64,000 nt of DNA from Spirochaetia bacterium (lineage in GTDB: Bacteria; Spirochaetota; Spirochaetia; WTKD01), in contig OZ251568.1 in NCBI GenBank assembly GCA_965243525.1, positions 1,632,588 to 1,696,587 of the forward strand. Reading direction: 5' to 3'. The notes beneath the pieces are model-generated. The model was not told where the DNA came from. It did no database searches and saw only the letters and a list, made by a program, of their open reading frames with translations. Made by a program: the position numbers and the translations under genes. Below, piece by piece: positions 1-48,772 of the stretch (positions are counted from its first letter, which is position 1; every line of letters begins with the position of its first letter).

Positions 1-2437
1 TATATATGTTGGAGGATTAGTAGGTTCTAATAAAGGAAGAATTGAGCGTAGTTATTCAACTGCGGAAGTAATTAGTTATGGAGATGAGGGTGGTGGACTA
101 GTGGGAATGAATTCTGGGCATATTATCAATAGTGCTGCAAGTGGGACGGTCAAAGGAATGAAAATTGTTGGTGGATTGGTGGGAAAGAATAGTGGTTCAA
201 TTGAGGATACTTATGCGATTGGAAAAGTGATGGGTGTAGGTGATCCGGCTACTCAAATAGGAGTACTAGTGGGCAAGAATTCTGAATTTGGTGACATTAG
301 GGCAAGTTATTTTGCTAGGAACTCTGCTCGACAAAACCAAGGAGTGGGACTTAATGAAAACTCTAATCTCGATCTTAACAGAAATATCACATTGTTCTAC
401 ATGACTGATAGTTTTGTATACAATAGCTTTGGATTTAGCCGCATAGGTATGACAGATGTTAATCGGATTAGACAAGATGATTTTGCCGTTTGGAACTTTG
501 GAGTTGATTCTTGGAGTTGGCTAGGTGTAGGGTATTGGCCACAGCCGAATTTTTCTTGGAGAGTACCACCTAATCCGGATTTAGTTTACGTTTTCCCTGG
601 AGAAGAAGAGGAGCCTCGTGAACTAGTGTATGGAAATGATCCACTATGGAATTTAAGATATAACCAAATGATGTTCAAGACGTCACATAATTCGTATGCG
701 CATCATTATGGGGACAATGGTTATGCAATATCAGTGATTGCACAACTTGATGCAGGAGCTCGAGGTATTGAATATGATATCTATGATAATGACTTTGGAG
801 ATAATCAGGACTATATACTTGGACATAACGTTCCAGAGACATCAGATGAATTATATGGAGTAGGTGAGATACGCTGGACCGAGGGAAATCCTAAATCTAA
901 ATTACTGTTCCCTTGGCTCAAGGTCATAGATACTTGGTCAGATGCTCATCCTGGGCATACTCCTATTACCCTCACGTTGGATCTAAAGAATGATTTAACT
1001 GATAATGAAGGCTTTGCAAATGGTGATCTCATATTCCTGAACCATCAAGTGTATAAGACTTTTGAAGAAAAGCTCTATGATCCCGTTCCTTCTCCAGAGG
1101 GAGAGGAAAATCCCTGGCCAAGACTAGGAGAACTTCAAGGAAAGATCATTGTAGTACTGAGTGGAAATAAGAAGAGTCGTCTAAGCACTGCATCTATAGA
1201 TGGGCTAAATCCCTATGGTACAATGGATGATAGCGGTAAGGTTATCATTGCCTATAAAAGTGGGGGCAGCCTATACTATTTGAGAGGACAAAAGAAAGAA
1301 AATGGAAAAATAATAACTTTTTTTAAATCAGAGATCTTTGCAAGCGGGTCTCATCCTTCTATATCTCTGAATAATAACGGAAATGTTGTTGTTACATACA
1401 GTAGGGGTGGCAATCTTTATTATCGTATTGGAGAACTAAACGATAAGCATAGTATCAGATGGGTGACACAAGAAATAGAGATCGATCTTGCTAGAGAAAG
1501 CTCTAGTGGTAATGATGTGGATTATCCCAGAGTTGCATTGAATGATACAGGGATAATTGTATTAATATATAGGAAGAACACTGGCACTTATTATAGTAAT
1601 CATTCTGGCCAAGGAGTTCCTCAGGATCCGGCGAGACCAAATGGAGGCGAAAATGATCTTAAAATAGGAAGATTACGTTTTGCTCCTGATGGTGAGCCAT
1701 CTAGCATTGAGTGGCAATCACAGAAGATCAATTTTTACAAGCACTCTTCTATGCTTCCTCATACTCTTTATTTTAAAGATATTGATGGAAACGGAAATAA
1801 ACTCTTTGGAAGCTATACTGCAGGTCGATTCGATCTTAGTGCTTATTATAGGGAGCCTGAATATCCTGACCAGGGATTTGAACTATCTCTAACGGTTACT
1901 GATAATGTTGCTCGTTACAACGAAGATATTGTCTTTGGATCTAATCTACGAAGACCAATCAATGGTTGGGGAAGCCCCACACATGATGTACGAGGAGCGC
2001 TTTCGGACAAAGGAATGTTCCGAATATTCCGCTCGGAGGAGGGAGGTAATCTTAGCTACGAAAGACATGTTTTAGATGACCCGGGAAGAAGCTGGATTAT
2101 TCCATTGCGTAAAACACCATTTCTTTTTGTTGAGGCACAGGCATCTGGAACGATGATACATAGTTCCTTAGAACCTCACCTGCATACTTACGCCAGATTT
2201 TTTGCAAGTGAGAGTTATCATAATGGGCGCGATGGTGACAACAATAGGGATAATGCTGTTCCTGGGGAGTTATTGGCCCTCCGAGCAAGTCATGAGGGGT
2301 TAGTAATACGAGATTGGAGGTTTGGTGCCTCGAATGTAGAGGAAGCCAGAGACCTGTTGCCGAATTTTCCTGCGGTGAATTATCCTGCCCCAGATTGGTA
2401 TGAAGAGATGTTTAGCGACATAGGATATATTGAATAA
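1..2437 (+). CDS. Large secreted/surface protein, paralog A, 5' partial. Has GLUG-type glycine-rich repeats, a PI-PLC-X-like phosphodiesterase domain, propeller-like repeats and a conserved C-terminal domain.
   Basis: The frame stays open upstream of the track's M at 101 back to position 2, with the same repeat (GGLVGSNKGRIERSY), so the gene runs off the 5' edge. Repeats are of the form GGLVGKNSGSIEDTY. The motif FKTSHNSY plus EYD...LGHNVP resembles the eukaryotic PLC X-box (SSHNTYL / ELDCWDG / YHGY). Three roughly 46-aa repeats carry G(N/S)LYY(R)IG. The C-terminus (HLHTYARFFAS...RDW.FG.SN...LPNFPAV.YP..DWY) is shared with the downstream paralog. Confidence 0.8.
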   Translation, partial: IYVGGLVGSNKGRIERSYSTAEVISYGDEGGGLVGMNSGHIINSAASGTVKGMKIVGGLVGKNSGSIEDTYAIGKVMGVGDPATQIGVLVGKNSEFGDIRASYFARNSARQNQGVGLNENSNLDLNRNITLFYMTDSFVYNSFGFSRIGMTDVNRIRQDDFAVWNFGVDSWSWLGVGYWPQPNFSWRVPPNPDLVYVFPGEEEEPRELVYGNDPLWNLRYNQMMFKTSHNSYAHHYGDNGYAISVIAQLDAGARGIEYDIYDNDFGDNQDYILGHNVPETSDELYGVGEIRWTEGNPKSKLLFPWLKVIDTWSDAHPGHTPITLTLDLKNDLTDNEGFANGDLIFLNHQVYKTFEEKLYDPVPSPEGEENPWPRLGELQGKIIVVLSGNKKSRLSTASIDGLNPYGTMDDSGKVIIAYKSGGSLYYLRGQKKENGKIITFFKSEIFASGSHPSISLNNNGNVVVTYSRGGNLYYRIGELNDKHSIRWVTQEIEIDLARESSSGNDVDYPRVALNDTGIIVLIYRKNTGTYYSNHSGQGVPQDPARPNGGENDLKIGRLRFAPDGEPSSIEWQSQKINFYKHSSMLPHTLYFKDIDGNGNKLFGSYTAGRFDLSAYYREPEYPDQGFELSLTVTDNVARYNEDIVFGSNLRRPINGWGSPTHDVRGALSDKGMFRIFRSEEGGNLSYERHVLDDPGRSWIIPLRKTPFLFVEAQASGTMIHSSLEPHLHTYARFFASESYHNGRDGDNNRDNAVPGELLALRASHEGLVIRDWRFGASNVEEARDLLPNFPAVNYPAPDWYEEMFSDIGYIE

Positions 2438-2483
2438 GATTGAATTCTATAGGTGAAGAAAGTGACTACCTAAACTAAATCAG

Positions 2484-2520
2484 GCCCTCTTGTAATTAAC
2501 TTACAGGAGGGTCGCTTTTT
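2484..2520 (+). terminator. Rho-independent terminator hairpin (CCCTCTTGTAA...TTACAGGAGGG) followed by a T-run. It is conserved after both paralogs.
   Basis: An inverted repeat with a 6-nt loop is followed by GTCGCTTTTT. A near-identical element lies after the second paralog at about 5583..5612. Confidence 0.55.
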
Positions 2521-2862
2521 CGACGACGGAATCGTCAATATTCAAAAGATACACAATACAGATAGAAATCGTCAGTGAGAAGCTTTGCTCTGGATAAATA
2601 GCCTTGCACGGTTATGTATTTTGAAAGAGAAGCCTACAAAAGCAAAAACCTAAAGAAGATGAATACATGTTGCCTGGTATGATCCTGGACGCAAGATGAT
2701 TATTCTGATAAAAGTAGTGATGAGAACTAAAGAGTACTATAAAAAATAACTTTTGCAGTATTCATTGTATAGTTAATTGAGAATTAAGGACCCTTATTCA
2801 TTAAGGAGTTCCTTGAGGAGAAGGAGGTATTCAAGATTTATCTTGGATGTCTAGGAGGTTAT

Positions 2863-5535
2863 ATGTTAAAAACATTAAAAAAATCGATGTATGTGCTCGT
2901 CGGTGTAGTGCTGGGTATCGCTCTTATAGGGTGTAAATCTCAGTTTTTGGTTACTTCAGGAATCAAATCTGATGTATCTGTATTTACGCGGAGTAGTCAC
3001 TCAGACGATGGGTACGTTGCAATTGCGAATGCGGATGATTTTCAACTAATACGTGATGATCTTGATGGGCATTTCGTATTATCGGCTGACATAAGATTAG
3101 AAGAAGACTTCGTTCCTATAGGAGATGCAAGTGCTCCCTTTGAGGGATCTTTTTCAGGAGATGGTCACATAATTAGTAATTTAAAGATATCGACGACACC
3201 TTATGCGGGGTTATTTGGAACAATAGGAACAAATGGAAGCGTGAATGATCTTATTCTTATCCCTGCAACAGGAACGGAAGAAAATCCAAGTATAGAAGGA
3301 AGCAACTATATAGGAACGCTTGCAGGAGTAAACTATGGAACTCTTAGAAAAATTGCAGTGGAGGGTGGAGTAGTTAGGGGATCGAATATAGTAGGAGGAC
3401 TAGTTGGAGAAAACCATGGAACGATTTCAGCTAGTTATGTCAGGGTAGGCGTTTTAGGAGTTGGAGCCTCAGCTGCTGCGGGCGGGCTTGCTGGAACGAA
3501 TTATGGGACCATAGATTCTAGTTATACGTACAATAGCTATGTGCTGTCAAATGAGGGAACAGCATATGTTGGTGGGATGGTTGGATACAACAATGGAACC
3601 ATTAAGTATAGTTATGCAGACAGTGCAGTAGGGGGAGTGTTTAGGGTTGGTAGTTTTGTTGGAAGAAATGATAGCAATGGAACCATACTAAGCAGTTATT
3701 TTGACGGAAGTCGCGGGCATCATCCTGCAATAGCAAGAGAGATAGGAACAGCAGATGTAGTTGCTTATTACACTATAGATGAAATTGTGCGTAGTTCTGA
3801 TTCTTCTGGTGGGGAGCGGATTAGAAGGGATCATTTTCGCGATTGGACTTTTGATTCTCAATCTGCTGTATGGCATTGGGTTGGGAATGGACAATGGCCT
3901 GATTTTGTGGGGCAAATTGATCCTGTCGGTCCGGTTGATTTTGCAAATTCATCATTATGGCATACTAGGACCTATGATGAGTTAGCATTTAAGGCGACGC
4001 GTGATTCGTATAGCAAGCCAATACCTGCACAACTTGATGCGGGTGTTCGGTTCATTGAATATGATATCCATGATAATGACATTGAAAACAATCATGATTA
4101 TAGTCTCGGATATGACTGGCCAGGGCAGAAAGTACACCATAATGATGGGAATCCGGGATCTAACGATCTGTTTCCTTGGCTTAGTCTCATAGACACTTGG
4201 TCAGATGCTAATCCTGAACATGCCCCCATCACCTTGTTGTTGGATTTGAGAGACAATCTGACTGATAATGGAGACTTTGCACATGGTGATCTCACATTTC
4301 TGAACTATCAACTGTATAAGGCTTTTGGAGAAAAACTCTATGTTCCTTTTGTTCCTCCAGCGGGAGTTGCAAATCCTTGGCCAAAAGCAGAAGACCTTAA
4401 AGGAAAGATCATTATAGTACTGAGTGGCCACGAAGGCACACGCGTAGAATACGTGAATACTGTGACGGGAGAACAGCCATATGGCACGATTGATGATAGT
4501 GGTAGGGTTATTATGGTATATGAAAATGGAAATAGCCTGCACTATTGGACGGGACAAAAAAGAGAAGATGGAACAGTAATATTTATAGAACGAGCAAGAT
4601 ATGGCTCTGGGGCTAATCCTTCTATATCGCTCAACAATAGAGGAGTTGTTGTAGCAACACATGAGAGCGATGGCAATCTTTATTATCGAATTGGACAATT
4701 GGAAGATGACCTGAGACTTGTGTGGCAAACAGAAGATATAGAATACCTTACGGATGCGAGTTATCCCAGAATTGGATTGAATGATGCAGGACTTGTTGTG
4801 GCAGGGTATAAGCAGTCAGCATTCTATGCTCGACCCGGAAGATTAGCTAGTGATGGACGTAGTATTGATTTCGATTCAGCGTATTTAGTTAGTGATTCCA
4901 CGGGAGTTATTCCTCTTTCTCTTTATTTTGAAACCCTTGATGGAACGAATCTATATGCATCTTATGATCTACCGAGAGAACCTGCTGAGACAGTTGCTAT
5001 GGTTTTTGAGGCTTCAACTGATGAGAACAGTGATTCTTTAGAGAACCTGGGTTCTATCGTACTTAATAAACAAGCACCAAGATCGGAATACGGAGTTTTT
5101 TATGTATTTTCTCAGGGTGGACAGTTGATGTATAAGAGGAGTATGGGACTTTTGGGAGGGCAAGAGATCTGGCGTGTTCCAATAACTAATGCGCAAGTTG
5201 CTTTTGTTGAAGCACAGAAAAACAAAGACATATTGGGTCTGTTTCCTCCAGAAGAGATACATGGATCCTTACGACCCCACCTGCATACGTATGCCAGATT
5301 TTTTGCAAGTATGAGTCTTGATAATGGAGGCCTTGATGCAATCAATACAGATAATACTATTCCTGAGAAGCTGATAGATCTTCGAAACAGGTATGGATTA
5401 GTCATACGAGATTGGAAATTTGGCGAATCGAATAGAGAGCGTTCCAGTTGGGACTTACCAAATTTTCCTGCTGTAGATTTCCCTCTATCGGATTGGTATA
5501 ACACCATGTTTGAATCTTTCGAGTATCTTGAATAA
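2863..5535 (+). CDS. Large lipoprotein, paralog B. Same architecture as paralog A (GLUG repeats, PLC-X-like domain, propeller-like repeats, C-terminal domain), but the PLC-like domain has substitutions at both predicted catalytic His positions.
   Basis: Strong RBS (GGAGGT) before the ATG. The signal peptide is MLKTLKKSMYVLVGVVLGIALIGCKS, with the lipobox LIGC. The N-terminus has an IANADDFQLIRDDLDGHFVLSADIRL...FEGSFSGDGHIISNL stretch followed by repeats of GG(L/M)VG.N.GTI..SY. The PLC-like region aligns with paralog A, but TSHNSY is replaced by ATRDSY and LGHNVP by LGYDWP. The C-terminal 120 aa are highly similar to paralog A. Confidence 0.85.
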   Translation: MLKTLKKSMYVLVGVVLGIALIGCKSQFLVTSGIKSDVSVFTRSSHSDDGYVAIANADDFQLIRDDLDGHFVLSADIRLEEDFVPIGDASAPFEGSFSGDGHIISNLKISTTPYAGLFGTIGTNGSVNDLILIPATGTEENPSIEGSNYIGTLAGVNYGTLRKIAVEGGVVRGSNIVGGLVGENHGTISASYVRVGVLGVGASAAAGGLAGTNYGTIDSSYTYNSYVLSNEGTAYVGGMVGYNNGTIKYSYADSAVGGVFRVGSFVGRNDSNGTILSSYFDGSRGHHPAIAREIGTADVVAYYTIDEIVRSSDSSGGERIRRDHFRDWTFDSQSAVWHWVGNGQWPDFVGQIDPVGPVDFANSSLWHTRTYDELAFKATRDSYSKPIPAQLDAGVRFIEYDIHDNDIENNHDYSLGYDWPGQKVHHNDGNPGSNDLFPWLSLIDTWSDANPEHAPITLLLDLRDNLTDNGDFAHGDLTFLNYQLYKAFGEKLYVPFVPPAGVANPWPKAEDLKGKIIIVLSGHEGTRVEYVNTVTGEQPYGTIDDSGRVIMVYENGNSLHYWTGQKREDGTVIFIERARYGSGANPSISLNNRGVVVATHESDGNLYYRIGQLEDDLRLVWQTEDIEYLTDASYPRIGLNDAGLVVAGYKQSAFYARPGRLASDGRSIDFDSAYLVSDSTGVIPLSLYFETLDGTNLYASYDLPREPAETVAMVFEASTDENSDSLENLGSIVLNKQAPRSEYGVFYVFSQGGQLMYKRSMGLLGGQEIWRVPITNAQVAFVEAQKNKDILGLFPPEEIHGSLRPHLHTYARFFASMSLDNGGLDAINTDNTIPEKLIDLRNRYGLVIRDWKFGESNRERSSWDLPNFPAVDFPLSDWYNTMFESFEYLE

Positions 5536-5582
5536 GGCCGAACTCTAAAGACGAAGAAGGTGATTACCTAAACTAGACCAGG

Positions 5583-5612
5583 CCCTCTTGTAATTAGCTT
5601 ACAAGGGGGCCA
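5583..5612 (+). terminator. Rho-independent terminator hairpin (CCCTCTTGTAA...TTACAAGGGGG), the duplicated copy of the element at 2484.
   Basis: The inverted repeat and the preceding 20 nt (TACCTAAACTA.A.CAGGCCCTCTTGTAATTA) are nearly identical to the region after paralog A. Confidence 0.5.
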
Positions 5613-5873: not shown

Positions 5874-6584
5874 ATGCATTTATACATTCTTCGTCACGCA
5901 GACCCTTGTTATGACCCTGATAGTCTAACTGAAATTGGACATCAAGAGGCTAAAGTCCTTGCAAAGAGGTTGAAAAATCTCAACGTAAACTATGTTTATT
6001 CTTCGCCGATGACTCGGGCAAAGCAAACGGCAAACTATACTGCAGAATTGCAGGATCTTGAAATCATTGAGAAGCCTTGGTTAAAAGAGTTATCACATGT
6101 GCAAATTCAGCAGGATAACAAAAGTTATGCTATTTGGGATACCTATGGCGAAACAGTGCGAAATACGATACCACTTCCTGACCACAGTGACTGGTTCAAA
6201 CGCGATCCTTTTGATAAAACGAAGATAGAGGTCTTATGGGAAGAATTCCGTGCCCAAGCTGATATGTTTATCTCGGCACATGGCTATACACGTGTTGATG
6301 GACGATATCGCATAGATCGTTCTAACGATGACCGTATAGCCATATTTTGTCATAATGGGACCTTACTTTTTTTGCTAGCTCATCTTTTGGAAATTCCTCC
6401 TTCGTTGGCTTGGTCTGGTTTTTTCTGTTGGCCAAGTTCCCTCACCGACATTTATTTTGATGAGCGATCACCACAATGGGCAGTTCCAAGAGCGTTGCAT
6501 GTTTCTGATGTTTCACATTTGATTGCAGCGGGTATGAAACCACAGGCGCGGGGTATGGGAGATCGATGTGATGAATACTATTAA
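5874..6584 (+). CDS. Histidine phosphatase family protein (phosphoglycerate-mutase-like / SixA-like).
   Basis: N-terminal LYILRHAD (RHG-type catalytic motif) and overall size. An upstream TTGACA-17-GATTAT box ends about 8 nt before the ATG, so the transcript may be leaderless. Confidence 0.7.
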   Translation: MHLYILRHADPCYDPDSLTEIGHQEAKVLAKRLKNLNVNYVYSSPMTRAKQTANYTAELQDLEIIEKPWLKELSHVQIQQDNKSYAIWDTYGETVRNTIPLPDHSDWFKRDPFDKTKIEVLWEEFRAQADMFISAHGYTRVDGRYRIDRSNDDRIAIFCHNGTLLFLLAHLLEIPPSLAWSGFFCWPSSLTDIYFDERSPQWAVPRALHVSDVSHLIAAGMKPQARGMGDRCDEYY

Positions 6585-6865: not shown

Positions 6866-7855
6866 ATGAAGAAAATTTTTTCTTACGTGATGCTTTTTGT
6901 CCTTGTTTCCAGTTTTTCCGTCTTTGCTGTGGGAACTGCTGAGGAAAAGGATGATACGTACGAAGTGGTGTTCATCCCCAAACTTGTAGGAATTCCATGG
7001 TTTACTGCAATGGAAAATGGGTTTAAGGATTTTGCATCTGAAGATGGCGGTCTGAAGATATCAGTAGTCGGAGCTCCTGATACCGATCCTGCTGCTCAGG
7101 CGAGAATACTTGAAGATGCGATAGCTCAGGAACCAGATGCTATTGTCGTTGTTCCCAACGATACAAAGGTGCTTGAACCAATCCTTGCACGTGGACGAGA
7201 AGCAGGCATCTTTATGGCAACGCAAGAAGCTCCGAATGTGCAGAATGTTGATCTCGATATTGAGTTTCTCATTGCAGAGCGCTATGGCGCTGACATGATG
7301 GAACTTTTTGTTCGTGAGGCAGGCACAAAGGGTGGTTATGCTATCATGGTCGGGGGACTCACGGTAACTTCACATAATCAGCGCGCTGATATGGGTGTTG
7401 TGCACCAGGAGGCGAATTACCCAGATCTGTATCAAGTCACCAGTCGACTTGAAGGGTCAGAAAGTGTCGAAGAAGCACAGGATCGCACCCTGGAGCTCAT
7501 TACGGCATATGATGATCTTGTAGGTCTTATCTACATTGGTAGTCTTGGTGCTATTGGTGGAGCTCAAGCAATTACATCCCTGAACAGAGACGACATTGCT
7601 ATCGTAGGTGGATCTGTTCCCAGTCAGGCAAAATCCTATCTTGCAGAGGGAACCATCAACGCAAATTACATCAGTAATCCATATAGGATTGGTCGTGATT
7701 CTGCGTATATCGTGAAACATTTTCTCGATGGAGGAAGCTTTGCTAATGTTGGTGATCTTCCAGAATACGGCGTTCCACAAATTGATGGGTCTGTTATCAC
7801 CTTTCATGCACCCTCTGAAGTAACAGCAGAAAATGCTGATGACTTTGGATTTTAG
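6866..7855 (+). CDS. Sugar ABC transporter periplasmic substrate-binding protein (CUT2 / RbsB-like family).
   Basis: Signal peptide, periplasmic-binding-protein type I fold hallmarks (VVFIPKLVGIPWF...DAIVVVPND). It is followed by a duplicated-ATPase ABC protein and two RbsC-like permeases. Confidence 0.85.
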   Translation: MKKIFSYVMLFVLVSSFSVFAVGTAEEKDDTYEVVFIPKLVGIPWFTAMENGFKDFASEDGGLKISVVGAPDTDPAAQARILEDAIAQEPDAIVVVPNDTKVLEPILARGREAGIFMATQEAPNVQNVDLDIEFLIAERYGADMMELFVREAGTKGGYAIMVGGLTVTSHNQRADMGVVHQEANYPDLYQVTSRLEGSESVEEAQDRTLELITAYDDLVGLIYIGSLGAIGGAQAITSLNRDDIAIVGGSVPSQAKSYLAEGTINANYISNPYRIGRDSAYIVKHFLDGGSFANVGDLPEYGVPQIDGSVITFHAPSEVTAENADDFGF

Positions 7856-7870
7856 ATAGAGCAGCTAATC

Positions 7871-9385
7871 GTGCATACACCTAATACAGCGCAAGATTCT
7901 CATCTTCTTTGTTTTCGAACGATTACCAAGCTGTATCAAGGGGTATGCGCACTTGATGCGGTGGATTTTTCTCTAGAGAAGGGGGAAATTCACTGCCTTG
8001 TAGGGGAAAACGGTTCAGGCAAATCGACACTGATCAAAATTATTTCAGGAGTTGTCTTGCCTGAGCCGGGGGCTAAAATGCGGCTTGCGGGACAGGATAT
8101 GTACACTATGGATACGCATGCATTACTGCAAGCCGGTGTGCGGGTTATCTATCAAGACCTGGCACTCTTTCCAAACTTAACTGTAAAAGAAAACATAGCT
8201 TTTGGAATCCACAGCGATTCACCAGGGTCCTTTGTAAATTGGGCCATGCTTGCTGACCGGGCACGTGAGGCGATGCAACTCATTGGGCTTGAACTCGACA
8301 TAGAACGGAATATTTCAAGTCTTTCGATTGCTGAACAACAACAGGTTGAAATTGCCCGGGCGCTCACCGGAAATCTGCAGCTGTTGATCTTGGATGAACC
8401 TACGGCCTCGCTTACGCGCTCAGAGGTTGAAAAGCTTTTTTCTACGATACGAATCCTGCAAAAGAAGGGCATCACCACCCTGTTTGTAAGTCATAAATTG
8501 AATGAGATTTTTGAAATAGCAGAACGAGTAACGGTGTTGAGGGATGGAAAGAACATAGGGATTTTTTCTCCTGCTGAGCTAAGCCATGAGAAACTCATCT
8601 ATTTGATGACTGGAGAGAGTTTTTCTTCACATCCACCGGACCCTCTTTCGATGAGTACAAAAGAAATGTTGCGTGTTGAGCATCTTTCACTGGAGAGAAA
8701 TTACAAAGATGTCTCTTTTGTACTGAAAGAAGGTGAAATACTTGGTATAACAGGTCGCCTTGGTTCTGGACGAACGGAGCTTGCACTCAGTTTGTTTGGT
8801 ATGCATCCGGCTGAGTCTGGTGCAATTTTTTTGTCTGGATCGCCTTTAAAAATCAAAAACAATGCAACTGCGATCAAGGCAGGGATCGCCTATGTCCCGG
8901 AAAATAGGTTATTGCAGGGATTGGTGATGTCTCAATCCATTTCTTCAAACATGAGTATTACGGTGTTGCCACAACTCCTGAATAAAGTTGGCCTGCTCGA
9001 TGCAGACAAAACAGAGAAACTTGGCAGGACATGGGTGGAGAAATTCTCGATAAAAATATCGAATCTTATGGCGGCTGTGAAAACTCTGTCGGGTGGCAAT
9101 CAGCAAAAAGTGGTGCTTTCAAAATGGTTAGCGCGGAACCCTAAGATACTTATTCTGGACGAACCCACCGTGGGAATCGATGTTTTTGCGAAGAACAGCG
9201 TGCATACCTTCATCAAGGACCTTGCAGCCGGCGGTATGAGCATCCTACTCATTTCAGATGAAGTACAAGAAGTGCTTTCAAATTGTCATCGGGTGCTTGT
9301 TATGGATGGAGGGCGTATCGTTGATGAGGTGTTTCCTGGCCCAGAAGCTGAAACACAATTATTCGAACGGTTTAATTTGGCATAG
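7871..9385 (+). CDS. Sugar ABC transporter ATP-binding protein with two tandem ABC domains (RbsA/MglA-like).
   Basis: Two Walker A motifs (GENGSGKST, GRLGSGRTE), signature LSGGNQQKV, Walker B ILDEPT. Apparent GTG start. Confidence 0.9.
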   Translation: MHTPNTAQDSHLLCFRTITKLYQGVCALDAVDFSLEKGEIHCLVGENGSGKSTLIKIISGVVLPEPGAKMRLAGQDMYTMDTHALLQAGVRVIYQDLALFPNLTVKENIAFGIHSDSPGSFVNWAMLADRAREAMQLIGLELDIERNISSLSIAEQQQVEIARALTGNLQLLILDEPTASLTRSEVEKLFSTIRILQKKGITTLFVSHKLNEIFEIAERVTVLRDGKNIGIFSPAELSHEKLIYLMTGESFSSHPPDPLSMSTKEMLRVEHLSLERNYKDVSFVLKEGEILGITGRLGSGRTELALSLFGMHPAESGAIFLSGSPLKIKNNATAIKAGIAYVPENRLLQGLVMSQSISSNMSITVLPQLLNKVGLLDADKTEKLGRTWVEKFSIKISNLMAAVKTLSGGNQQKVVLSKWLARNPKILILDEPTVGIDVFAKNSVHTFIKDLAAGGMSILLISDEVQEVLSNCHRVLVMDGGRIVDEVFPGPEAETQLFERFNLA

Positions 9386-9390
9386 TGTAT

Positions 9391-10416
9391 ATGAAAAAAC
9401 ATAATTATCTTTCTAAACTATTTTCACAAAACGAAATATATCTCTTTCTGATGTTAATCATTCTCGTAAGCGTCATATCCTTGGTCAACCCTCGATTTTT
9501 CACTGGGCGCAACCTATTACAGGTCTTACGGAGTGCTTCATTTACCGGCATTCTTTCAATAGGATTTCTTTTCGTGTTAATCGCCGGTGGGTTGGATATT
9601 TCTTTTACGGCGACTGCCACGGTTGCACAATACCTGATGGCACTTGTTTTAATAGGAAATCCTGATATGCCCATCCTCTTTGTGATATGCATCCCACTGC
9701 TTGTGGGAACCTGTCTCGGTGCTCTGAACGCATTTTTGATTCACGTATTGAATGCGCCATCAATCATCATTGCGATCGCGAATCTCAATGTGTATTATGG
9801 GCTCTTGCAGATTATCAGTGGGGGCACTTGGATATATGATTTTCCGCAATGGTTTCAGAAGTTTGGAAAGGGTTTTTTGTTTCGCTTTTTCGACGAGAAC
9901 GGCGCTGCTTATGGGATAGCCTATATCACTATTATCTGGGTTGCGGTGGCAATCGCAGCGGTGGGAATTCTTCGCTACATGAAATTGGGAAGAAAGCTCT
10001 ATGCATTGGGGGGAAATTATGAAGCGGCTCGTCGAGCAGGATTGAATATTTTTCGATTGCGTCTGTTTGCCTATTCTTTTCTTGGATTTTCTGCGGGAAT
10101 AGCCGGACTTATCCAGGCGTTGAATACGCAAACCGTTGCCCCGAATGCCTTGATAGGACGTGAATTTGATGTTGTAGCAGCGGTGGTGCTCGGGGGAGCA
10201 AGTATCTTTGGAGGCACCGGCACGGTTATTGGAACCTTTCTTGGAGTGCTGCTCATCACAGTGATCACCAATGCTCTTACAATATTAAAAGTTCCCGCCT
10301 ATTGGCATCAGGTTTTTATTGGGGCGCTCGTACTTAGCAGTATAGGCATAACATCGCTACGTATCATGCGAGCAAAGAAGAAAGAACGGAGTATCGCCAT
10401 TCATGAAGATAATTAA
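9391..10416 (+). CDS. Sugar ABC transporter permease (RbsC/branched-chain type, CUT2).
   Basis: Polytopic membrane protein immediately after the ATPase. ATG at 9391; the track's 9385 is GTG. Confidence 0.85.
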   Translation: MKKHNYLSKLFSQNEIYLFLMLIILVSVISLVNPRFFTGRNLLQVLRSASFTGILSIGFLFVLIAGGLDISFTATATVAQYLMALVLIGNPDMPILFVICIPLLVGTCLGALNAFLIHVLNAPSIIIAIANLNVYYGLLQIISGGTWIYDFPQWFQKFGKGFLFRFFDENGAAYGIAYITIIWVAVAIAAVGILRYMKLGRKLYALGGNYEAARRAGLNIFRLRLFAYSFLGFSAGIAGLIQALNTQTVAPNALIGREFDVVAAVVLGGASIFGGTGTVIGTFLGVLLITVITNALTILKVPAYWHQVFIGALVLSSIGITSLRIMRAKKKERSIAIHEDN

Positions 10417-11419
10417 GCGATTTCAAACTTGGAATGACAAAAACATAGATATTGCGATCCTTCCATGGTTATTCGTCGGGGTATTGTTGCTCATGACCAT
10501 TACAACGCAGGGAAAGTTTTTGCGTATACACAACGTATCCAACATTCTCTTGCAGATGCCAGAATTGGGACTTTTGTCGCTGGCCATGATGCTTGCGATG
10601 ATTTCTGGAGGCATCAACCTATCGATTATCAGTTCGGCGAATCTCACAGCGGTTGTTATGGCTGTTTTTTTGACTCTCCCCGGGATAAAGGCAGGAACGG
10701 TCCCAGCATTTGTCTTCATCGGTGTTGCGCTTCTTTTGGGAATACTCGTATCCATACTCCTTGGTGCCGTGAATGGATATCTCATTGGGTATATAGAAGT
10801 ACCAGCAGTGCTAGCAACGATGGGAACGATGATTCTCTATGAGGGCATCACCCTGGTTATTACGCAGGGATCAGTTATCTCTGACCTTGCTGAACCATTT
10901 TTATTTATTGGAACCGCTCGTTTTTTTGGCATTCCCTTTCCAATGATCATTTTTTGCGTAGTCGTATTATGTGTCTCTGTACTTTTGCAGCGACGTCCTT
11001 ATGGAAGCTATCTCTATTTTATTGGATCCAATGTAATTGCGACGAGATTTTCCGGCATTAATACGCGAAGGGTTCTCCTGCAGACTTACATATTGTCCGG
11101 TCTGCTTTCTGGCGCTGCGGCTATTGTTATGGTATCACGTTTTAACTCTGCGAATGCACGCCAAGGAAGCTCGCTGCTTCTTTCAACGGTATTGATTTGT
11201 ATGTTGGGGGGAGTTGATCCCTTTGGTGGATTTGGAAAGGTGAGTGGACTTATCATGGCCCTGGCCATTTTGCAGATGCTGACCAGTGGATTAAACCTCT
11301 TGGGAATACCTTCGTTTGCGACAGTGGCGATTTGGGGAGCGATGCTCATAGCGGTCATGATATATCGATATATTCAGAACAAGCGATTAGAGGGACGCTT
11401 GTTAGGAACTAACCCATAA
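10403..11419 (+). CDS. Sugar ABC transporter permease (second RbsC-like subunit).
   Basis: Polytopic membrane protein that overlaps the previous permease by 14 nt. Confidence 0.85.
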   Translation: MKIIKRFQTWNDKNIDIAILPWLFVGVLLLMTITTQGKFLRIHNVSNILLQMPELGLLSLAMMLAMISGGINLSIISSANLTAVVMAVFLTLPGIKAGTVPAFVFIGVALLLGILVSILLGAVNGYLIGYIEVPAVLATMGTMILYEGITLVITQGSVISDLAEPFLFIGTARFFGIPFPMIIFCVVVLCVSVLLQRRPYGSYLYFIGSNVIATRFSGINTRRVLLQTYILSGLLSGAAAIVMVSRFNSANARQGSSLLLSTVLICMLGGVDPFGGFGKVSGLIMALAILQMLTSGLNLLGIPSFATVAIWGAMLIAVMIYRYIQNKRLEGRLLGTNP

Positions 11420-11473: not shown

Positions 11474-12319
11474 ATGAATTTTGGAGCACATGCATTTATC
11501 TGGGAAGGAGAGTGGAATAGTGCAAATGGGTTGCGGGTTATCTCTGAGGCATCGCGGCTAGGGTTGGATTTCGTCGAGATTCCGTTGCTGCGGCCAGACG
11601 ATTTTCAGAGCAAGGAGACGAAGCAACAATTAGCAGATCATGGTATCTACGCGACGTATTCGCTGGGGCTGCCGGTGAATAAAAGCCTTCCGGAAAACCC
11701 AAAGGGAGCTGAGGAGTTTCTTATGAGCGCAGTGGACTCCGTCGCTGAAGCCGGTGGAAACACTCTTACTGGAGTATTATACGGCACGCTTGGAGGATTT
11801 GAAGGACGCCCTCCAACGGATGCTGATTATGCAGTGATTGCTAAAACTCTCAACACTGTTGCAGAATATGCAGAATCGGCGGGAATCCGCCTCGGCATTG
11901 AGCCGGTTAACCGGTATGAAACATTTCTTGTGAATACTGCAGAACAGGCTGTGGATCTGCTCAATCGTGTTGATTCAAACAATATTTTCATCCATTTGGA
12001 CACCTATCATCTCAACATAGAAGAGGAATCGTTTAGAAAAGCGATACAAACAGCGGGGGCTCGCATGGAATATATCCATTTGTCTGAAAGCCATCGTGGT
12101 ACTCCCGGTGAGGGAACCGTGAACTGGGATGATGTCTTTGCGGGGTTACGGGATATCTCGTTTCGAGGTGCACTCACGATGGAGTCTTTCGTGAAGCTGA
12201 ATCCTGATATTGCAAAGGCAACGTGCATGTGGCGTAACATCGTTGATGATTCTGAGGCACTTGTGAAAAAAGGGCTTAGTTTCTTAAAACATAAAGCCTT
12301 AGAATATGGCTTGAAATAA
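11474..12319 (+). CDS. Sugar phosphate isomerase/epimerase, xylose-isomerase-like TIM barrel (ketose 3-epimerase-like).
   Basis: GAGGAGG RBS. The pattern MNFGAHAFIWEGEW...IEP...HLDTYH...E is typical of tagatose/psicose 3-epimerase-like enzymes. Confidence 0.7.
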   Translation: MNFGAHAFIWEGEWNSANGLRVISEASRLGLDFVEIPLLRPDDFQSKETKQQLADHGIYATYSLGLPVNKSLPENPKGAEEFLMSAVDSVAEAGGNTLTGVLYGTLGGFEGRPPTDADYAVIAKTLNTVAEYAESAGIRLGIEPVNRYETFLVNTAEQAVDLLNRVDSNNIFIHLDTYHLNIEEESFRKAIQTAGARMEYIHLSESHRGTPGEGTVNWDDVFAGLRDISFRGALTMESFVKLNPDIAKATCMWRNIVDDSEALVKKGLSFLKHKALEYGLK

Positions 12320-12341: not shown

Positions 12342-13727
12342 CTATGCCTCTTTGTATTGTATAAGTTGCTGTTGTAGGTGAGGCAAAATCGGAATATTTT
12401 TTTCTAAACCAGCAAGTGCGAGTATTGCTGCACCGCGGGCGGCTGATTCTGTTTCAAGGGGCATGCGGAGTGGGCGTTGTATGCGTTCAGCGAGCGTTGT
12501 TCTGAGTGATGCATTCTTTGTGAAGGCGTTCCCCGAAATAGCAGCATAGCTTTGTGGTGCATCAAGCATGTGGATGTGATCACCGATCATAGCAAGTAAT
12601 TCTTCAATGACACCAGAAGACATTCCCCAGAAAATATCAGAAAGGGTGAAATTGTTGAGTGTTATATTTGATATAGACCCTGTCTGGTGTGGATTTTTTC
12701 TTGTGCCGTTGAAAAGAGTGGATATCACCAGAGGAATATCCGAAGAAGGTCGTTTGAGCTCGTTGAGGATGCCATATGCATCCTTGGAGGGACAAGCGGC
12801 CTTTTCAAGGGTCTCAGAAATAAGATGCGTGAGAAGCTCAAAGGATTTGCCGCCACTGAGACTAGCTCCGACAAGAAGCATACGATTATTTGGAAAGGGA
12901 CGTATCTCTAGGGGTGAATCTTTGAAACTATCTGATGATGCTGTGGATGGGGCGAGGAAGGATACCTGTCCGCTGGTTCCAATATTGACAGATATTGCAT
13001 GATTAGGATCGCGCACACTGGCGATGAAACTCATTTGATTGTCGCCCTCAGGGAGAAAGACAGGAATTCCCGTTGAGGTTTTTCCTATGCAATGCCCACA
13101 AGATGTGATGATCGGTAACGCTATCTTGGATTTTTTCGCAATCTCCCAAGGAGCCAAAAAAATACAGCGATCACTATCAAAGAAACCAAAACTATGAGCG
13201 AGGCTTGCACTGATGGAGTGAGATTTCTGTTCGATGATATGTCCAGCGATGTAATCAGGAAGGCTAGTCAGAAATCTTGCCTTCTGAGGAATTGCGGCCT
13301 GCCGCTGCAAGACATAGAAGCTTCCGAATGCATACCCAGCGGGAACGGTGGCCTTGAATTCATCGTGCATGAGGGCTCCATAGGTCTTTGCACTATGTTC
13401 ATCATGCCAGGACAACCGATTATCCATCCAAGTGTATACGGGAGAAACAGGATCGCCTGCATCATCCAAAAGAAGCATGCTGTGCATCTGTCCGGTAATC
13501 CCGATAGCGATTGGATCTGTACAGATTTTGCATGCATTTGCCAATTCTTGTTCTAGACAGCGGATTAATTTTTTGGGATCTTGTAGAAAGGCTCCTGCTT
13601 GATCGGGGGGTAGATCTGCTTGATGTCTGCGGGATGAAACAAAGATATTTTTTCCGCTATCTCCATCAACTGCCACAACTGAGATTGATGTGGTGCCGAC
13701 ATCTATTCCTATTACTACCCTTTGCAT
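12342..13727 (-). CDS. FGGY-family carbohydrate kinase (xylulokinase / sugar kinase-like).
   Basis: N-terminal VVIGIDVGTTSISVV and the two-domain FGGY layout. It is convergent with the epimerase gene. Confidence 0.75.
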   Translation of the reverse strand: MQRVVIGIDVGTTSISVVAVDGDSGKNIFVSSRRHQADLPPDQAGAFLQDPKKLIRCLEQELANACKICTDPIAIGITGQMHSMLLLDDAGDPVSPVYTWMDNRLSWHDEHSAKTYGALMHDEFKATVPAGYAFGSFYVLQRQAAIPQKARFLTSLPDYIAGHIIEQKSHSISASLAHSFGFFDSDRCIFLAPWEIAKKSKIALPIITSCGHCIGKTSTGIPVFLPEGDNQMSFIASVRDPNHAISVNIGTSGQVSFLAPSTASSDSFKDSPLEIRPFPNNRMLLVGASLSGGKSFELLTHLISETLEKAACPSKDAYGILNELKRPSSDIPLVISTLFNGTRKNPHQTGSISNITLNNFTLSDIFWGMSSGVIEELLAMIGDHIHMLDAPQSYAAISGNAFTKNASLRTTLAERIQRPLRMPLETESAARGAAILALAGLEKNIPILPHLQQQLIQYKEA

Positions 13728-24064: not shown

Positions 24065-27000
24065 TTATGAACACCACACATCGGTAATAAAAGGAAATTT
24101 TTTCAATTCTTCCAACACAGTGCTACGTGGGCTCAACTGCAATTGTGGTGAGCATACCAACAATTCCTCTTCGTCGGTATGAGAGGGATGGACGTAGACG
24201 CTGCTAAATCCAGGATTATTTTTGATAAACGTACGCAACTGCATCGCAGAATGTTTTGGGTTATGTACATCAGAAATACGTACATGGATTTTCTCAATTG
24301 CCAATTCTTCATTTGGTATTGCTCGCTGGATAGACCCTACGTTATACAGGTGCGCATCGCGGCTATCCTGAGTAACACTCACGTGGATTACCTTGCCATC
24401 AACGAGGTGTGCCGCATATTTCTTATGTTCCTGCGCAAAAATGCGCAATTGTTTGTGCCCTAGTGAGGTTTCAAGACTTGCGCTTACTATTTCTTCTTTT
24501 CTTCTCGTCGTATATCGAGATTTCTCTTGGTATACCCCAATAAATTCCCGCTGAGAAGAAGAGTATTGGCGTTGATTGATGCGTGATTCTGAAACAGAAT
24601 AATTAGACAAGGGATTCCCGCTTGCGTAGAACTGCAGAAATTGTTTTTCATCGTGAAGCCTTTCTTCAAGCGACCAGTCGGGAAGGTCTTCGTTGAAAGA
24701 GGCAAATTCCGTTTCTTGTGGATCGAACAACGTAAACTGCCCGGCTTCCTGAAGTTTCTTTTGTTGTTGAGCGTGTGCATACAAAGTTTCAAGCTGCAAA
24801 AAGAGCATCTTCCGGTTTGTGTGGATCGAATCAAAAACACCTGCGCGAATAAGACTTGCAATGCTTGTCTTTCGCACGATGGTCAAATTAACACGGGTCA
24901 AAAAATCGTTTATCGATGTAAATGGATGATCTGCCCTAGCCGTGACAATTGCTTCTGAAACTGCCTCGGCAACTGTTTTTATTCCAATCAACCCGAAAAG
25001 AATTTCTTTTTGATCCTTGACGGTGAAGTACACTTTTGATTTGTTTATATCCGGTGGAATCAAGGTGATCTTCATGTTTTGAATTGTTTCTATAAACGAC
25101 ATAAAACTGTCTGGAAATTTGTATTCGCAGTTCAGATAGGCAGCAAAAAACGGAGCAGGGTAATGCGTCTTCAGATAGGCGGTTTGGAATGCAAGCAGGG
25201 CATAGGCAGCAGCGTGTGATTTGTTGAATCCATACCCCGCAAAAGGTTCTATGATGTCGAAAATGCGCTCAGCCCTGTCCTTGGTATACCCTTGCTTGTG
25301 CGCGCCATCAACAAATTTTTGGCGAATTTCTTCAAGCTCTTCGCGCTTCTTTTTTCCCATAACCCTTCGCATGATGTCCGCTTCACCAAGCGAAAATCCA
25401 CCAATATGCTGCACAATCTGTATGACCTGTTCTTGGTATACAATAATGCCGTAAGTTTCTTCAAGGATACTCTGCACCTCGGGCAACAAGTATTCCAACG
25501 AGTGCCCTTTTTTCTTGTTGGTAATATAAAGGTCTATAAACTGCATGGGGCCGGGGCGATAGAGCGCGTTTATAGCTGTGATGTCTTCGATGCGCTCAGG
25601 TAATGTTCGTCGAAGAATCTGCTGCATGCCAGCGCTTTCCAGTTGAAATATTGCTTGACTGTTTCCCTCTTGAAGCATCGCAAACGTCGCCGTATCGGTC
25701 AGGTCAATGGATTCCATGGAAAACGTGGGGTGATAATGTCGGATTGTTTGTTCTGCATTATGGATGACTGTGAGTGTTTTCAACCCTAGGATATCCATTT
25801 TGATCAGTCCAAATTCCTCAAGCGCATCCATAGAATACTGCGTTGCAATTGATCCGGATCGCGGCTCTCGGTATAGGGGAAGGTATTCAATAATGGGTTT
25901 TTTCCCGATGATGATTCCTGCCGGATGGGTTGAAGCATGACGGTTGAGTCCAATGAGTTTTTGCGCGATGTCCACACATTCTCGATAGGTCGTATCTTCG
26001 TTGTAGTATTTCTGTAACACCGAATGCTCTTGAAACAACTCGACTAGGCTTGTATCAAGAAAATAGGGGATATGTCCCGCCAAGGTGTTTACTTCGCTGA
26101 AGGGGAGATTCAAAACTCGTGCAACATCCTTTAAAGCTGCGCGTGCTTTCATGGTGCCAAAGGTGATAATCTGTCCTACGTTTTCTGTGCCATATCGCTC
26201 TGTGATGTATTGAATGATTTCTGGACGTCCATCTATACAAAAATCGATGTCAAAATCAGGCATTGAGACTCTGTCAGGATTGAGAAATCGTTCAAAAAGG
26301 AGGCCGTATCGAATTGGATCGATATTGGTTATGCTTAGGGCATAGGCAACAAGAGAACCTGCACCAGAACCACGGCCTGGTCCCACGGGAATATCATGTT
26401 CTATAGCAAAATGCACGAAATCCCAAATAATCAAAAAATAGCCAACAAATCCCATCGAAATAATGGTATCAAGCTCAAAATCTGCACGCTTTTGCAGATT
26501 CGGTGTTATATCGGGATATTTTTTTTCCAGCCCTTCATAGGTGAGGTGCCGCAAATACGCCCCGGCGTCTGAAAACCCCTCTGGAATTTCATATTCGGGA
26601 AGCTGTGGGGGAAGCGGTTCAAATGTGGTTTTGCATTGCTGTGCAATGTGCACAGTGGTGTGCATTGCCTGGAGACTCTCAGAGAACTCTTCTTCGATCA
26701 CCTCCCTTGGTTTTAAATAAAACTCGCGAGAGGGAAACAAGATACTTCGGTCTTCTTTTTTTCTGTTTTGCCCAATACGTATCAGAATATCGTGTGCATC
26801 TGCATCTTCCTCTTTCGCATAATACGCCTCGTTGCAGATAGTTGTTTGTACTTCATATTCATCCGCTAGTTTCTCCAAGTGGTTGTTGAGCGCTATTCGT
26901 TCAGCAGTTCCATTGTTTGAAAGAGCGAGATATACACTGTCTTTTCCATAGGTATCAATATAAAATTGCAGGCGTTCTTTTGCATATGCGTGTTGGTTGT

Positions 27001-27442
27001 TGCGGAGTGCGATTCCAATGTCACTCCTTGTTGCTCCTTGAATACAGAAAAGACCATGGTTGTATTTTTTGATCAATGCATCGTCTATGCGTGGATGATA
27101 ATAGAATCCTTCGATATAGGCATAGGAAGAAAGCAGGGAGAGGTTTTTGAATCCTTCATTTGTTTTCGCGATAAGGTGAATAGTATGTTGGGGAGTTTTT
27201 GCTTCTTGTTTCGATTTTTCATGTCTTCCACGTGGAGCAATCGCAAATTCACATCCAATGACCGGGGTGACGTTATGTTGCTTGCAGGCCCGTACAAAGG
27301 GAATGACACCAAAAAGATTTCCTTCATCACAGATGGCAGCATGCGTATTGCCTTGTGCTATTGCATGCAGAACGATGTCTTCAACGCGAATCAAAGAACG
27401 CAGAAGGCTATAATCAGAGTGCACATGGAGAGGTATGAACAT
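24065..27442 (-). CDS. dnaE: DNA polymerase III alpha subunit.
   Basis: N-terminal PHP domain (FIPLHVHSDYSLL), polymerase core and OB fold. The track start at 27478 is TTG; the ATG at 27442 gives MFIPLHVHS. Confidence 0.9.
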   Translation of the reverse strand: MFIPLHVHSDYSLLRSLIRVEDIVLHAIAQGNTHAAICDEGNLFGVIPFVRACKQHNVTPVIGCEFAIAPRGRHEKSKQEAKTPQHTIHLIAKTNEGFKNLSLLSSYAYIEGFYYHPRIDDALIKKYNHGLFCIQGATRSDIGIALRNNQHAYAKERLQFYIDTYGKDSVYLALSNNGTAERIALNNHLEKLADEYEVQTTICNEAYYAKEEDADAHDILIRIGQNRKKEDRSILFPSREFYLKPREVIEEEFSESLQAMHTTVHIAQQCKTTFEPLPPQLPEYEIPEGFSDAGAYLRHLTYEGLEKKYPDITPNLQKRADFELDTIISMGFVGYFLIIWDFVHFAIEHDIPVGPGRGSGAGSLVAYALSITNIDPIRYGLLFERFLNPDRVSMPDFDIDFCIDGRPEIIQYITERYGTENVGQIITFGTMKARAALKDVARVLNLPFSEVNTLAGHIPYFLDTSLVELFQEHSVLQKYYNEDTTYRECVDIAQKLIGLNRHASTHPAGIIIGKKPIIEYLPLYREPRSGSIATQYSMDALEEFGLIKMDILGLKTLTVIHNAEQTIRHYHPTFSMESIDLTDTATFAMLQEGNSQAIFQLESAGMQQILRRTLPERIEDITAINALYRPGPMQFIDLYITNKKKGHSLEYLLPEVQSILEETYGIIVYQEQVIQIVQHIGGFSLGEADIMRRVMGKKKREELEEIRQKFVDGAHKQGYTKDRAERIFDIIEPFAGYGFNKSHAAAYALLAFQTAYLKTHYPAPFFAAYLNCEYKFPDSFMSFIETIQNMKITLIPPDINKSKVYFTVKDQKEILFGLIGIKTVAEAVSEAIVTARADHPFTSINDFLTRVNLTIVRKTSIASLIRAGVFDSIHTNRKMLFLQLETLYAHAQQQKKLQEAGQFTLFDPQETEFASFNEDLPDWSLEERLHDEKQFLQFYASGNPLSNYSVSESRINQRQYSSSQREFIGVYQEKSRYTTRRKEEIVSASLETSLGHKQLRIFAQEHKKYAAHLVDGKVIHVSVTQDSRDAHLYNVGSIQRAIPNEELAIEKIHVRISDVHNPKHSAMQLRTFIKNNPGFSSVYVHPSHTDEEELLVCSPQLQLSPRSTVLEELKKFPFITDVWCS

Positions 27443-27562
27443 GTAATTTACCCTACCTGCAGGTATTTCAATCGTCAAGTGACATATGTCATGAGGTTGC
27501 GCTCGACAATAATACTAGAACCTCATTTATGATATTGGAGTAGAGAAGGGTGCAATTATTTC

Positions 27563-46632: not shown

Positions 46633-46668
46633 AGTAGTTTGAAAGACCAGTAACAGACTATAGTATTT

Positions 46669-46740: not shown

Positions 46741-46741
46741 T

Positions 46742-48761: not shown

Positions 48762-48772
48762 TCTACGTTCAT

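Follow-up and report, generated by a model that had tools for sequence, protein, structure and literature searches.

The first 5.6 kb of a 64,000-nucleotide stretch of a Spirochaetia bacterium genome (contig OZ251568.1 of assembly GCA_965243525.1; the whole stretch is here called the window) carry two adjacent genes, copy A and copy B, whose products are paralogous proteins related to phosphatidylinositol-specific phospholipase C (PI-PLC). The account that in our view explains them best, and which we hold to be probable, is that they constitute a pair of Ca2+-dependent PI-PLC-type proteins with a split barrel, carried on stalks of GLUG repeats, copy A being an active enzyme and copy B a binding-only paralog. 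According to this proposal, each protein would begin with a beta-helix stalk of GLUG repeats and continue with one catalytic module, a PF16670-like TIM-barrel phosphodiesterase of the Ca2+-dependent PI-PLC type, in which the chain would exit the barrel after the last strand of the X box (GKIIVVLSG), form a five- or six-bladed propeller of about 300 residues, and re-enter the barrel to provide the remaining strands together with a conserved Arg-x-Trp motif. The substrate of copy A would be an inositol phospholipid, cut at its glycerol-phosphate or ceramide-phosphate bond by the usual two-histidine, Ca2+-assisted mechanism, the propeller at the X/Y junction being most likely a substrate-recognition or gating module, and copy B would retain the fold, three putative Ca2+ ligands (the fourth changed from Asn to Asp) and the Arg-x-Trp motif, having lost both histidines and a lysine.

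The two genes lie on the plus strand. Copy A (2-2437) has 811 visible residues and a stop codon at 2435-2437; its listed open reading frame (ORF) covers 101-2437, and the frame is open back to base 2 (812 codons), so that the gene extends past the left edge of the window, with its 5' end outside. Copy B (2863-5535) is complete, encodes 890 residues identical to the database protein P0001, and has an ATG preceded by an AGGAGG Shine-Dalgarno sequence at a gap of 6 nt. The pairwise alignment proposed in an earlier interpretation of the region from its letters alone (the sequence-only reading), which had described two adjacent paralogous genes on the same strand, establishes the paralogy, with 38% identity over 830 columns (BLASTP, E = 4e-149); the attribute 'giant' used there does not suit proteins of just 890 and 811 visible residues. 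A tblastn search of the 64-kb window for a third copy found none, no ortholog of either copy was found among 5.8 billion proteins, and a genome scan with copy B as query returned no relative. Copy A is in neither of two large protein collections in which copy B and the neighbouring genes are present, and this may be because the window starts at a contig end or because the gene was left uncalled. The sequence-only reading was also right that this region is richer in A+T: the G+C content of positions 1-5612 is 40.7% vs 43.3% in the rest of the window, a real but modest difference (8th lowest of 292 sliding windows), and G+C at third codon positions (GC3) is 0.29-0.30 in the pair vs 0.35-0.44 in nine other window genes.

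Comparison with known structures places the pair among the PI-PLCs. In a phmmer search of the PDB, copy A matches 5FYO (E = 1.2e-8) and 3H4W (E = 6e-4), residues 214-396 aligning with residues 11-198 of 5FYO and the motifs FKTSHNSY, IEYDIYD and ILGHN pairing with CHNCY, LELDFWD and FVRHN, respectively; with a profile made from an 85-sequence alignment of the family (alignment A3), the E-values for the same two structures are 6.9e-21 and 7.5e-13. The Pfam scores narrowly miss the cutoff for PF16670 (PI-PLC-C1; copy A 28.7 bits, copy B 26.2 bits, cutoff 29.9 bits) and are likewise under it for the eukaryotic X box PF00388 (19.8 and 19.4 bits, cutoff 23.1 bits), while three members of the same subfamily (P0123, P0139 and P0232) exceed the PF16670 cutoff with 42-43 bits. 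The Pfam scan, taken up to an E-value of 1, gave no match to the Y-box, PH, EF-hand or C2 models in either copy, and NCBIfam gave none for copy A or B. As judged from these alignments, the nearest relatives of the pair are the bacterial Ca2+-dependent PI-PLCs (PF16670; 5FYO, 3H4X). Of the 'eukaryote-type PI-PLC-X-like domain' described in the sequence-only reading, the PLC type is therefore retained on the strength of the 5FYO match, but the eukaryotic type is not, given the sub-cutoff PF00388 score and the nearer bacterial branch; the HMMER comparison with Pfam that it had proposed does find PLC-like matches, though sub-cutoff for both PF16670 and PF00388.

The residues on which catalysis would depend differ sharply between the two copies. 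To our knowledge, two histidines act as general acid and base in the whole PLC-like family. The catalytic histidines of PLC-delta1 are His311 and His356, described as needed to form the cyclic inositol phosphate intermediate (PMC10149971), and the Ca2+ ligands are Asn312, Glu341, Asp343 and Glu390 (PMC12195575); residue roles in 5FYO are assigned by analogy with PLC-delta1. In copy A the first catalytic histidine and its neighbour are His229-Asn230 (codons CAT AAT, 686-691, plus strand), the Asn being the counterpart of the Ca2+ ligand Asn312, the second histidine is His275 (CAT, 824-826, plus strand), and a lysine follows at Lys329 (AAG, 986-988, plus strand). The corresponding plus-strand codons of copy B specify Arg380-Asp381 (CGT GAT, 4000-4005) in place of His-Asn, Tyr417 (TAT, 4111-4113) in place of the second His, and Arg463 (AGA, 4249-4251) in place of the Lys. 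The codon positions given in the sequence-only reading (His at 686-688 and 824-826 in copy A, Arg at 4000-4002 and Tyr at 4111-4113 in copy B) proved exact, and their equation with the catalytic histidines holds as well, the copy A histidines being found in HNSY and GH motifs that align with HNCY and RHN of 5FYO.

Conservation in the 83 other representatives of alignment A3 sets these changes in context. The first His (92%; A H229, B R380), the Asn (92%; N230, D381), the second His (90%; H275, Y417) and the Lys of an LDLK motif (89%; K329, R463) are replaced in copy B, and the Glu (95%; E257, E399), the Asp (96%; D259, D401), the Asp of LDLK (92%; D327, D461), the Arg (99%; R770, R849) and the Trp (88%; W772, W851) are kept. 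The full set of two histidines and Asn/Glu/Asp metal ligands is present in copy A (H229, N230, E257, D259, H275), which is predicted to be active, and absent from copy B (R380, D381, E399, D401, Y417, with Lys changed to R463). Each of the four catalytic changes of copy B is a single transition. At non-catalytic conserved positions copy B agrees with the family consensus in 55 of 63 cases, about like copy A, and its changes are therefore enriched at catalytic positions (4/8 catalytic vs 8/63 other conserved positions, Fisher p = 0.024). An intact, conserved paralog from which the acid/base pair has been specifically lost bears the signature of a pseudo-enzyme and not of a decaying gene, and copy B is thus predicted to be a catalytically dead, binding-only paralog in which the probable Ca2+- and phosphate-binding residues are largely kept; as a presumptive non-enzyme it is a homolog of the PF16670 family that should not be filed as an enzyme of that family. 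The alignment and the codons accordingly bear out the proposal that this is a PLC-type pair with one copy lacking both catalytic histidines. Some 5 of the other 83 representatives (P0199, P0235, P0248, P0257 and P0265) lack both histidines as well, which suggests that catalytically dead versions recur within the subfamily; at the 8 other distinct family loci examined, no tandem active/dead pair was seen.

The catalytic module itself appears to be divided in two. The first, X-like half of the barrel is found at 641-1189 in copy A (plus strand, residues 214-396, with H229-N230, E257/D259, G274-H275, D327 and K329) and at 3940-4449 in copy B (plus strand, residues 360-529, with R380-D381, Y417 and R463, and with E399, D401 and D461 kept). 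The second, Y-like half is assigned to 2117-2434 in copy A (plus strand, residues ~706-811, with R770-x-W772) and, by homology to the copy A model, to 5185-5532 in copy B (plus strand, residues ~775-890, with R849-x-W851 kept). An AlphaFold model of copy A residues 203-811 computed from alignment A3 reached a predicted local distance difference test (pLDDT) score of 80.2 and a predicted template modelling (pTM) score of 0.83, superseding an earlier, poor model from 9 sequences (pLDDT 59). In model numbering, it consists of beta/alpha structure up to ~195, some 20 beta strands at 200-499 and a beta-alpha-beta-alpha segment at 506-605. We judge this to be the PLC-type TIM-barrel fold of the PF16670 family, which here is not a contiguous single-domain barrel of ~300 residues, as a propeller of ~300 residues interrupts it at copy A ~402-701. 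Foldseek aligned ~201 columns with 5FYO at a target-normalised TM-score of 0.47, long insertions not being bridged by the method.

The position of the insert is given by the Pfam alignment: PF00388 aligns copy A residues 225-384 with model positions 10-140 of 144, and since it stops at residue 384 (GKIIVV), directly ahead of the propeller, the insert is located at the X/Y junction, a putative positional equivalence that is taken from the end of the X-box alignment and not from a residue-level superposition. A second profile stretch, collinear but statistically insignificant, sets the family motif vRlWgF over IGRVWGDD of 5FYO (234-281) with both family profiles. The family Arg-x-Trp is reminiscent of the substrate-binding motif Arg549-x-Tyr551 of the PLC-delta1 Y box. 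When the profile of the C-terminal segment alone was compared with the PDB, no PLC match was obtained; a match to RBBP9 (E = 0.014) was discarded as spurious, being a short motif-like stretch of an unrelated alpha/beta hydrolase. From the model and the profiles, then, the C-terminal ~120 residues that the sequence-only reading had considered a domain of unknown function make up the other half of this TIM barrel, within which the propeller is nested, the residue-level topology of the split barrel being a prediction. The four-part architecture described there is thus partly upheld, as the stalk, the PLC-like part and the repeats are present, but the C-terminal segment is not a separate domain: as modelled, the proteins consist of a stalk and a single barrel into which a propeller is inserted, and not of four modules in series. 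The structure prediction suggested as a check did return a barrel-type model, while the placement of the catalytic histidines rests on the sequence alignment.

The propeller insert extends over 1208-2101 in copy A (plus strand, residues ~403-700) and, as delimited by a blade hidden Markov model (HMM) and by alignment with copy A, over 4477-5172 in copy B (plus strand, residues ~539-770). The blade HMM was built from family blades 1 and 2, the third repeat being left out of training, and detects three repeats in each copy (residues 403-446, 451-490 and 509-529 in A; 539-582, 585-623 and 635-666 in B), in agreement with the three blade-like repeats noticed in the sequence-only reading; the third repeat is recovered at E = 3e-4 in A and 1e-3 in B, the other blades having diverged. 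In the copy A model the insert comprises some 20 strands, which would correspond to five or six blades, and copy A has additional loops (model residues 331-334, 404-407 and 431-461) that are modelled poorly. The propeller resembles those of sialidases, fucose lectins and paramyxovirus attachment proteins. The blade repeat has no Pfam model and also stands alone in long multi-repeat proteins, such as P0176 with 13 matched blade stretches and P0218 with 11, the latter ending in a CBM4_9 domain.

N-terminal GLUG repeats are present in both proteins, as had been proposed. In copy A, the visible end of the beta-helix stalk (2-330, plus strand) scores 48.3 bits in three stretches against PF07581 (Glug; gathering cutoff 20.5 bits). 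In copy B this model gives 17.0 bits, under the cutoff, and over a hundred GLUG proteins match its N-terminal third in phmmer, at E-values as low as 1e-49, so that we regard both as GLUG-motif proteins, copy A by Pfam and copy B by phmmer. The GLUG-type beta-helix stalk of copy B extends over 3016-3882 (plus strand, residues ~52-340) and weakly matches the putative IgA1 protease 3N6Z (E = 0.008). Ahead of it, at 2863-2934 (plus strand), copy B has a lipoprotein signal peptide: its N-terminus MLKTLKKSMYVLVGVVLGIALIGC reads as a basic n-region, a hydrophobic core and the lipobox LIGC already noted in the sequence-only reading (residues 21-24, with the Cys24 codon at 2932-2934), and it fits the lipobox pattern [LVI][ASTVI][GAS]C as MLKTLKKSMYVLVGVVLGIALIG-C24, on a pattern match alone. 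Many other family members have lipobox-like N-termini (IFGC, LFSC, FLAC, LLAC). Because of the lipobox in copy B and of these N-termini in its relatives, copies A and B are both probably extracytoplasmic and surface-anchored.

The split-barrel arrangement is shared by many proteins. An exhaustive search of 1.84 billion representatives with the subfamily profile gave 505 matches at E<1e-30, and 3232 at the looser threshold of E<1e-3. Of the 150 best, over 100 match end to end in a single stretch (profile positions ~30-473), from the PLC part through the repeats to the C-terminal segment, and these are mostly 420-580 residues long; P0001, that is copy B, scores 571 bits and belongs to the subfamily. 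When copy B was used in full as the query of a word-indexed search, GLUG proteins alone were retrieved; its non-GLUG part retrieved seven relatives of 419-510 residues. N-terminal additions among the top matches are five EGF repeats (P0169), a Tectonin domain (P0151) and a weak GDSL match (P0257), and P0230 has the X-half only, fused to a GH18 chitinase with CBM5/12. None of the matches listed other than copy B itself combines GLUG repeats with the split barrel, and none of the 120 GLUG matches listed carries a PF16670 domain; among the data examined, the GLUG fusion and the tandem pair are seen only in this window. A search of the literature, incomplete in its coverage, found nothing on this combination, and the subfamily appears to be large, unnamed and undescribed.

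The genomic contexts of the relatives are heterogeneous. At one locus (L001, 4787-9626) the family gene lies between a DUF3419 gene and an MMPL transporter; at another (L006, 8001-16046; L007, 542-6945) it is followed by genes for DUF3419, an acetyltransferase, a polyprenyl synthase and a PlsC-type acyltransferase. DUF3419 (PF11899) neighbours are thus present at two informative loci, from two unrelated contig sets. This is presumably a BtaA-like, diacylglycerol-utilising family, and its adjacency may hint at a role of the simpler members in membrane-lipid remodelling.

The closest known systems are the PI-PLCs of Pseudomonas sp. 62186 (5FYO, 5FYP, 5FYR) and Streptomyces antibioticus (PLC1; 3H4W, 3H4X). 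These bacterial enzymes share with the family His-Asn, Glu-x-Asp, (Gly/Arg)-His, W-S-D-x-H-P-G-H-x-P-I and Arg-x-Trp, and are likewise secreted or extracytoplasmic. They differ in being contiguous barrels of ~300 residues, whereas the proteins of the window have a propeller of ~300 residues after the X-half and a GLUG stalk, score narrowly below the family cutoff and, in the case of copy B, lack both histidines. The eukaryotic PI-PLCs have the same catalytic residues (His311, Asn312, Glu341, Asp343 and His356 in PLC-delta1), and the X/Y junction, their site of autoinhibition, would also be the site of the propeller insert. In PLC-gamma an SH2/SH3/split-PH array stands at the junction of the barrel halves (PMC12195575, PMC10149971), so that a folded insert at this point would be common to both, with the difference that in the window it is a beta-propeller. 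The combination of X and Y boxes with PH, EF-hand and C2 domains that defines the eukaryotic enzymes was not found in the pair; these enzymes are cytosolic, unlike the extracellular proteins proposed here, which have a sub-cutoff X box, no Y-box match and no significant PH, EF-hand or C2 match.

For copy B the precedent is found in PRIP/PLCL1 and PLCL2, which have a PLC barrel without the catalytic histidine or histidines and are inactive, while the fold and ligand binding are kept; the likeness, in the shared barrel, is to copy B as a binder, and the differences are their eukaryotic, cytosolic nature and their other domain context. As to the stalk, copies A and B resemble GLUG surface proteins of the IgA1-protease and filamentous-haemagglutinin types (3N6Z), in which such a repeat stalk would present a C-terminal effector, and differ from them in the PF16670-type domain, absent from the GLUG matches listed as stated above; conversely, the N-terminal extensions scanned in the best 150 split-barrel representatives were EGF, Tectonin or weak GDSL, or gave no match. 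Another spirochaete protein, L-PI-PLC (LB361) of Leptospira interrogans, is reported to show PI-PLC activity and to be secreted (PMC3790881). Compared by its description only, it differs in being small, with X and Y boxes and no stalk, propeller or paralog pair reported (PMC3790881).

Several observations weigh against the proposed pair of active enzyme and binding-only paralog. Neither protein of the window attains the curated Pfam cutoff for PF16670 or for PF00388; copy A has no visible 5' end, so that its export signal would lie outside the window and its integrity is presumed; about 130 residues of its propeller are modelled at low confidence; and both copies lack several Trp residues that are conserved in the family propeller, so that propeller function may differ from that of typical members. 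Possible, if on the doubtful side, is that these are PLC-like superfamily phosphodiesterases with a substrate other than a phosphoinositide, such as a GPI (glycosylphosphatidylinositol) glycan, a glycerophosphodiester, a sphingomyelin-type lipid or a wall polymer, with the propeller as a glycoconjugate-selecting lectin. The likeness of the insert to sialidase, fucose-lectin and paramyxovirus-attachment propellers favours this, as do the fusions among relatives with Tectonin or with a CBM5/12-bearing GH18 chitinase, the CBM4_9 domain in a protein that matches the blade-repeat part of the profile only, and the heterogeneous genomic contexts; the full His/Asn/Glu/Asp/His set, however, is that of a PI-PLC. 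Were this alternative true, the conclusions on architecture would stand and the chemistry alone would differ. To assume four independent modules in series, with a novel C-terminal domain after an X-box-only PLC fragment, would account for the failure of the C-terminal profile to match a PLC by sequence and for the Pfam models spanning the first barrel half only, but we consider it very improbable, as a TIM barrel cannot close from the X-half alone, the model is one compact body with a pTM of 0.83, and over 100 representatives have the C-terminal segment, with its 99% conserved Arg, together with the X-half.

The remaining alternatives concern copy B. It could have a remodelled active site (Arg380, Asp381, Tyr417, Arg463) that still supports catalysis, perhaps of a different kind such as a metal-only, lyase or transferase reaction: Glu399, Asp401, Asp461 and Arg849-x-Trp851 are retained, an Asp in place of the Asn could still ligate Ca2+, and the loss of both histidines in ~5/83 representatives could represent a second functional state. 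We know of no precedent for Arg and Tyr in place of the catalytic histidines, and the eukaryotic PRIP/PLCL proteins, which carry substitutions of this sort, bind without being active. We regard such residual catalysis as unlikely, the cyclic inositol phosphate intermediate of PLC-delta1 requiring both histidines (PMC10149971). Decay of a functionless duplicate, be it copy B or both copies together, with drift under relaxed selection, would agree with four catalytic changes that are all single transitions, with a GC3 below that of the neighbouring genes and with the lack of an ortholog of either copy among the 5.8 billion proteins. Against this, copy B has an intact frame of 890 codons with a Shine-Dalgarno sequence, signal peptide and lipobox, its changes are concentrated in the active site (p = 0.024), and it fits the consensus at 55/63 non-catalytic positions even though the duplication is old (38% identity), which makes decay highly unlikely in our opinion.

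The duplication also reaches beyond the coding sequences. The flanks following the two stop codons (2438-2515 and 5536-5612) are identical at 61 of 78 nt (78%), against 65-67% in the final 150-360 nt of the coding sequences and 54% in the sequence beyond the flanks, and they contain a core of 37 nt, identical at 34 positions, that occurs only twice in the window. Both flanks fold into a 13-bp hairpin, and three substitutions in the 3' arm keep the pairing (G.U to G-C, U-A to U.G and U.G to U-A). After copy A the hairpin (2483-2523, plus strand; 13-bp stem, then a T run) has the form of a terminator; the paralogous hairpin after copy B (5581-5611, plus strand) has a weak T run. A duplicated 3' flank with a terminator hairpin, as put forward in the sequence-only reading, is confirmed. 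Upstream of the hairpin there is a conserved GAAGAA(A/G)GTGA(C/T)TACCTAAACTA stretch, and neither the 3' flanks nor the intergenic sequences have a match in Rfam.

Copy B is followed by a histidine-phosphatase-family gene (5874-6584) and by a sugar ABC transporter encoded by four genes (6866-11419; RhaS/LsrB-like binding protein, ATPase and two permeases). Next come a D-psicose-3-epimerase/IolO-like gene (11474-12319) and, on the minus strand, an FGGY sugar kinase gene (12342-13727). The intergenic spacers measure 261 nt ahead of the phosphatase gene and 281 nt ahead of the transporter. A functional link of the pair to the histidine phosphatase and the ABC transporter was rejected, as it would rest on adjacency alone, the hairpin and the spacers intervene, and the arrangement is not seen at other loci.

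Elsewhere in the window, the 16S rRNA gene is complete (48982-50517, 1502 bits) and is flanked by tRNA-Ala(TGC) on its upstream side (48772-48847) and tRNA-Ile(GAT) on its downstream side (50863-50936). No 23S rRNA gene was found within the window and protein-coding ORFs begin at 51134, so that the rRNA genes seem not to be linked; the placing of the tRNA genes on either side of the 16S gene is unusual. A tRNA-Lys(TTT) and tRNA-Glu(TTC) pair lies at 46560-46741, and as an ORF of 378 residues (46667-47803, TTG start) overlaps tRNA-Glu, its true start is probably further downstream. DnaE (24065-27478, minus strand) has one relative at 66% identity, all others being at 46% or below; its named matches are Spirochaetota, namely metagenome-assembled genomes of Spirochaetaceae and Alkalispirochaetaceae, with Spirochaeta thermophila at 45%. 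At a threshold of 90% identity, all window proteins that were looked up are singletons, and they lie on one 1.79-Mb contig. Judging from these comparisons, the organism would be a deep-branching, uncultured-looking spirochaete without a close sequenced relative.

A wider interpretation, which we offer as speculative and think rather improbable as a whole, is that the pair belongs to an undescribed and widespread bacterial branch in which the propeller selects, or gates access for, glycosylated inositol lipids (such as GPI anchors or glycosyl-inositol-phosphoceramides) and dead members recur. The active and the dead GLUG-stalk protein of the window, displayed next to each other, would then respectively cut and adhere to one and the same lipid, of a host or of the environment. 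If the split-barrel model is right, the insertion of a domain at the PLC X/Y junction is not a eukaryotic invention and is also found in a large bacterial subfamily, which would provide a simple system for studying how an X/Y insert controls access to the active site. The tandem pair would in turn be a natural enzyme/pseudo-enzyme control, in which four active-site residues are different, and a fold and a likely chemistry could be assigned to several hundred 'hypothetical' metagenome lipoproteins.

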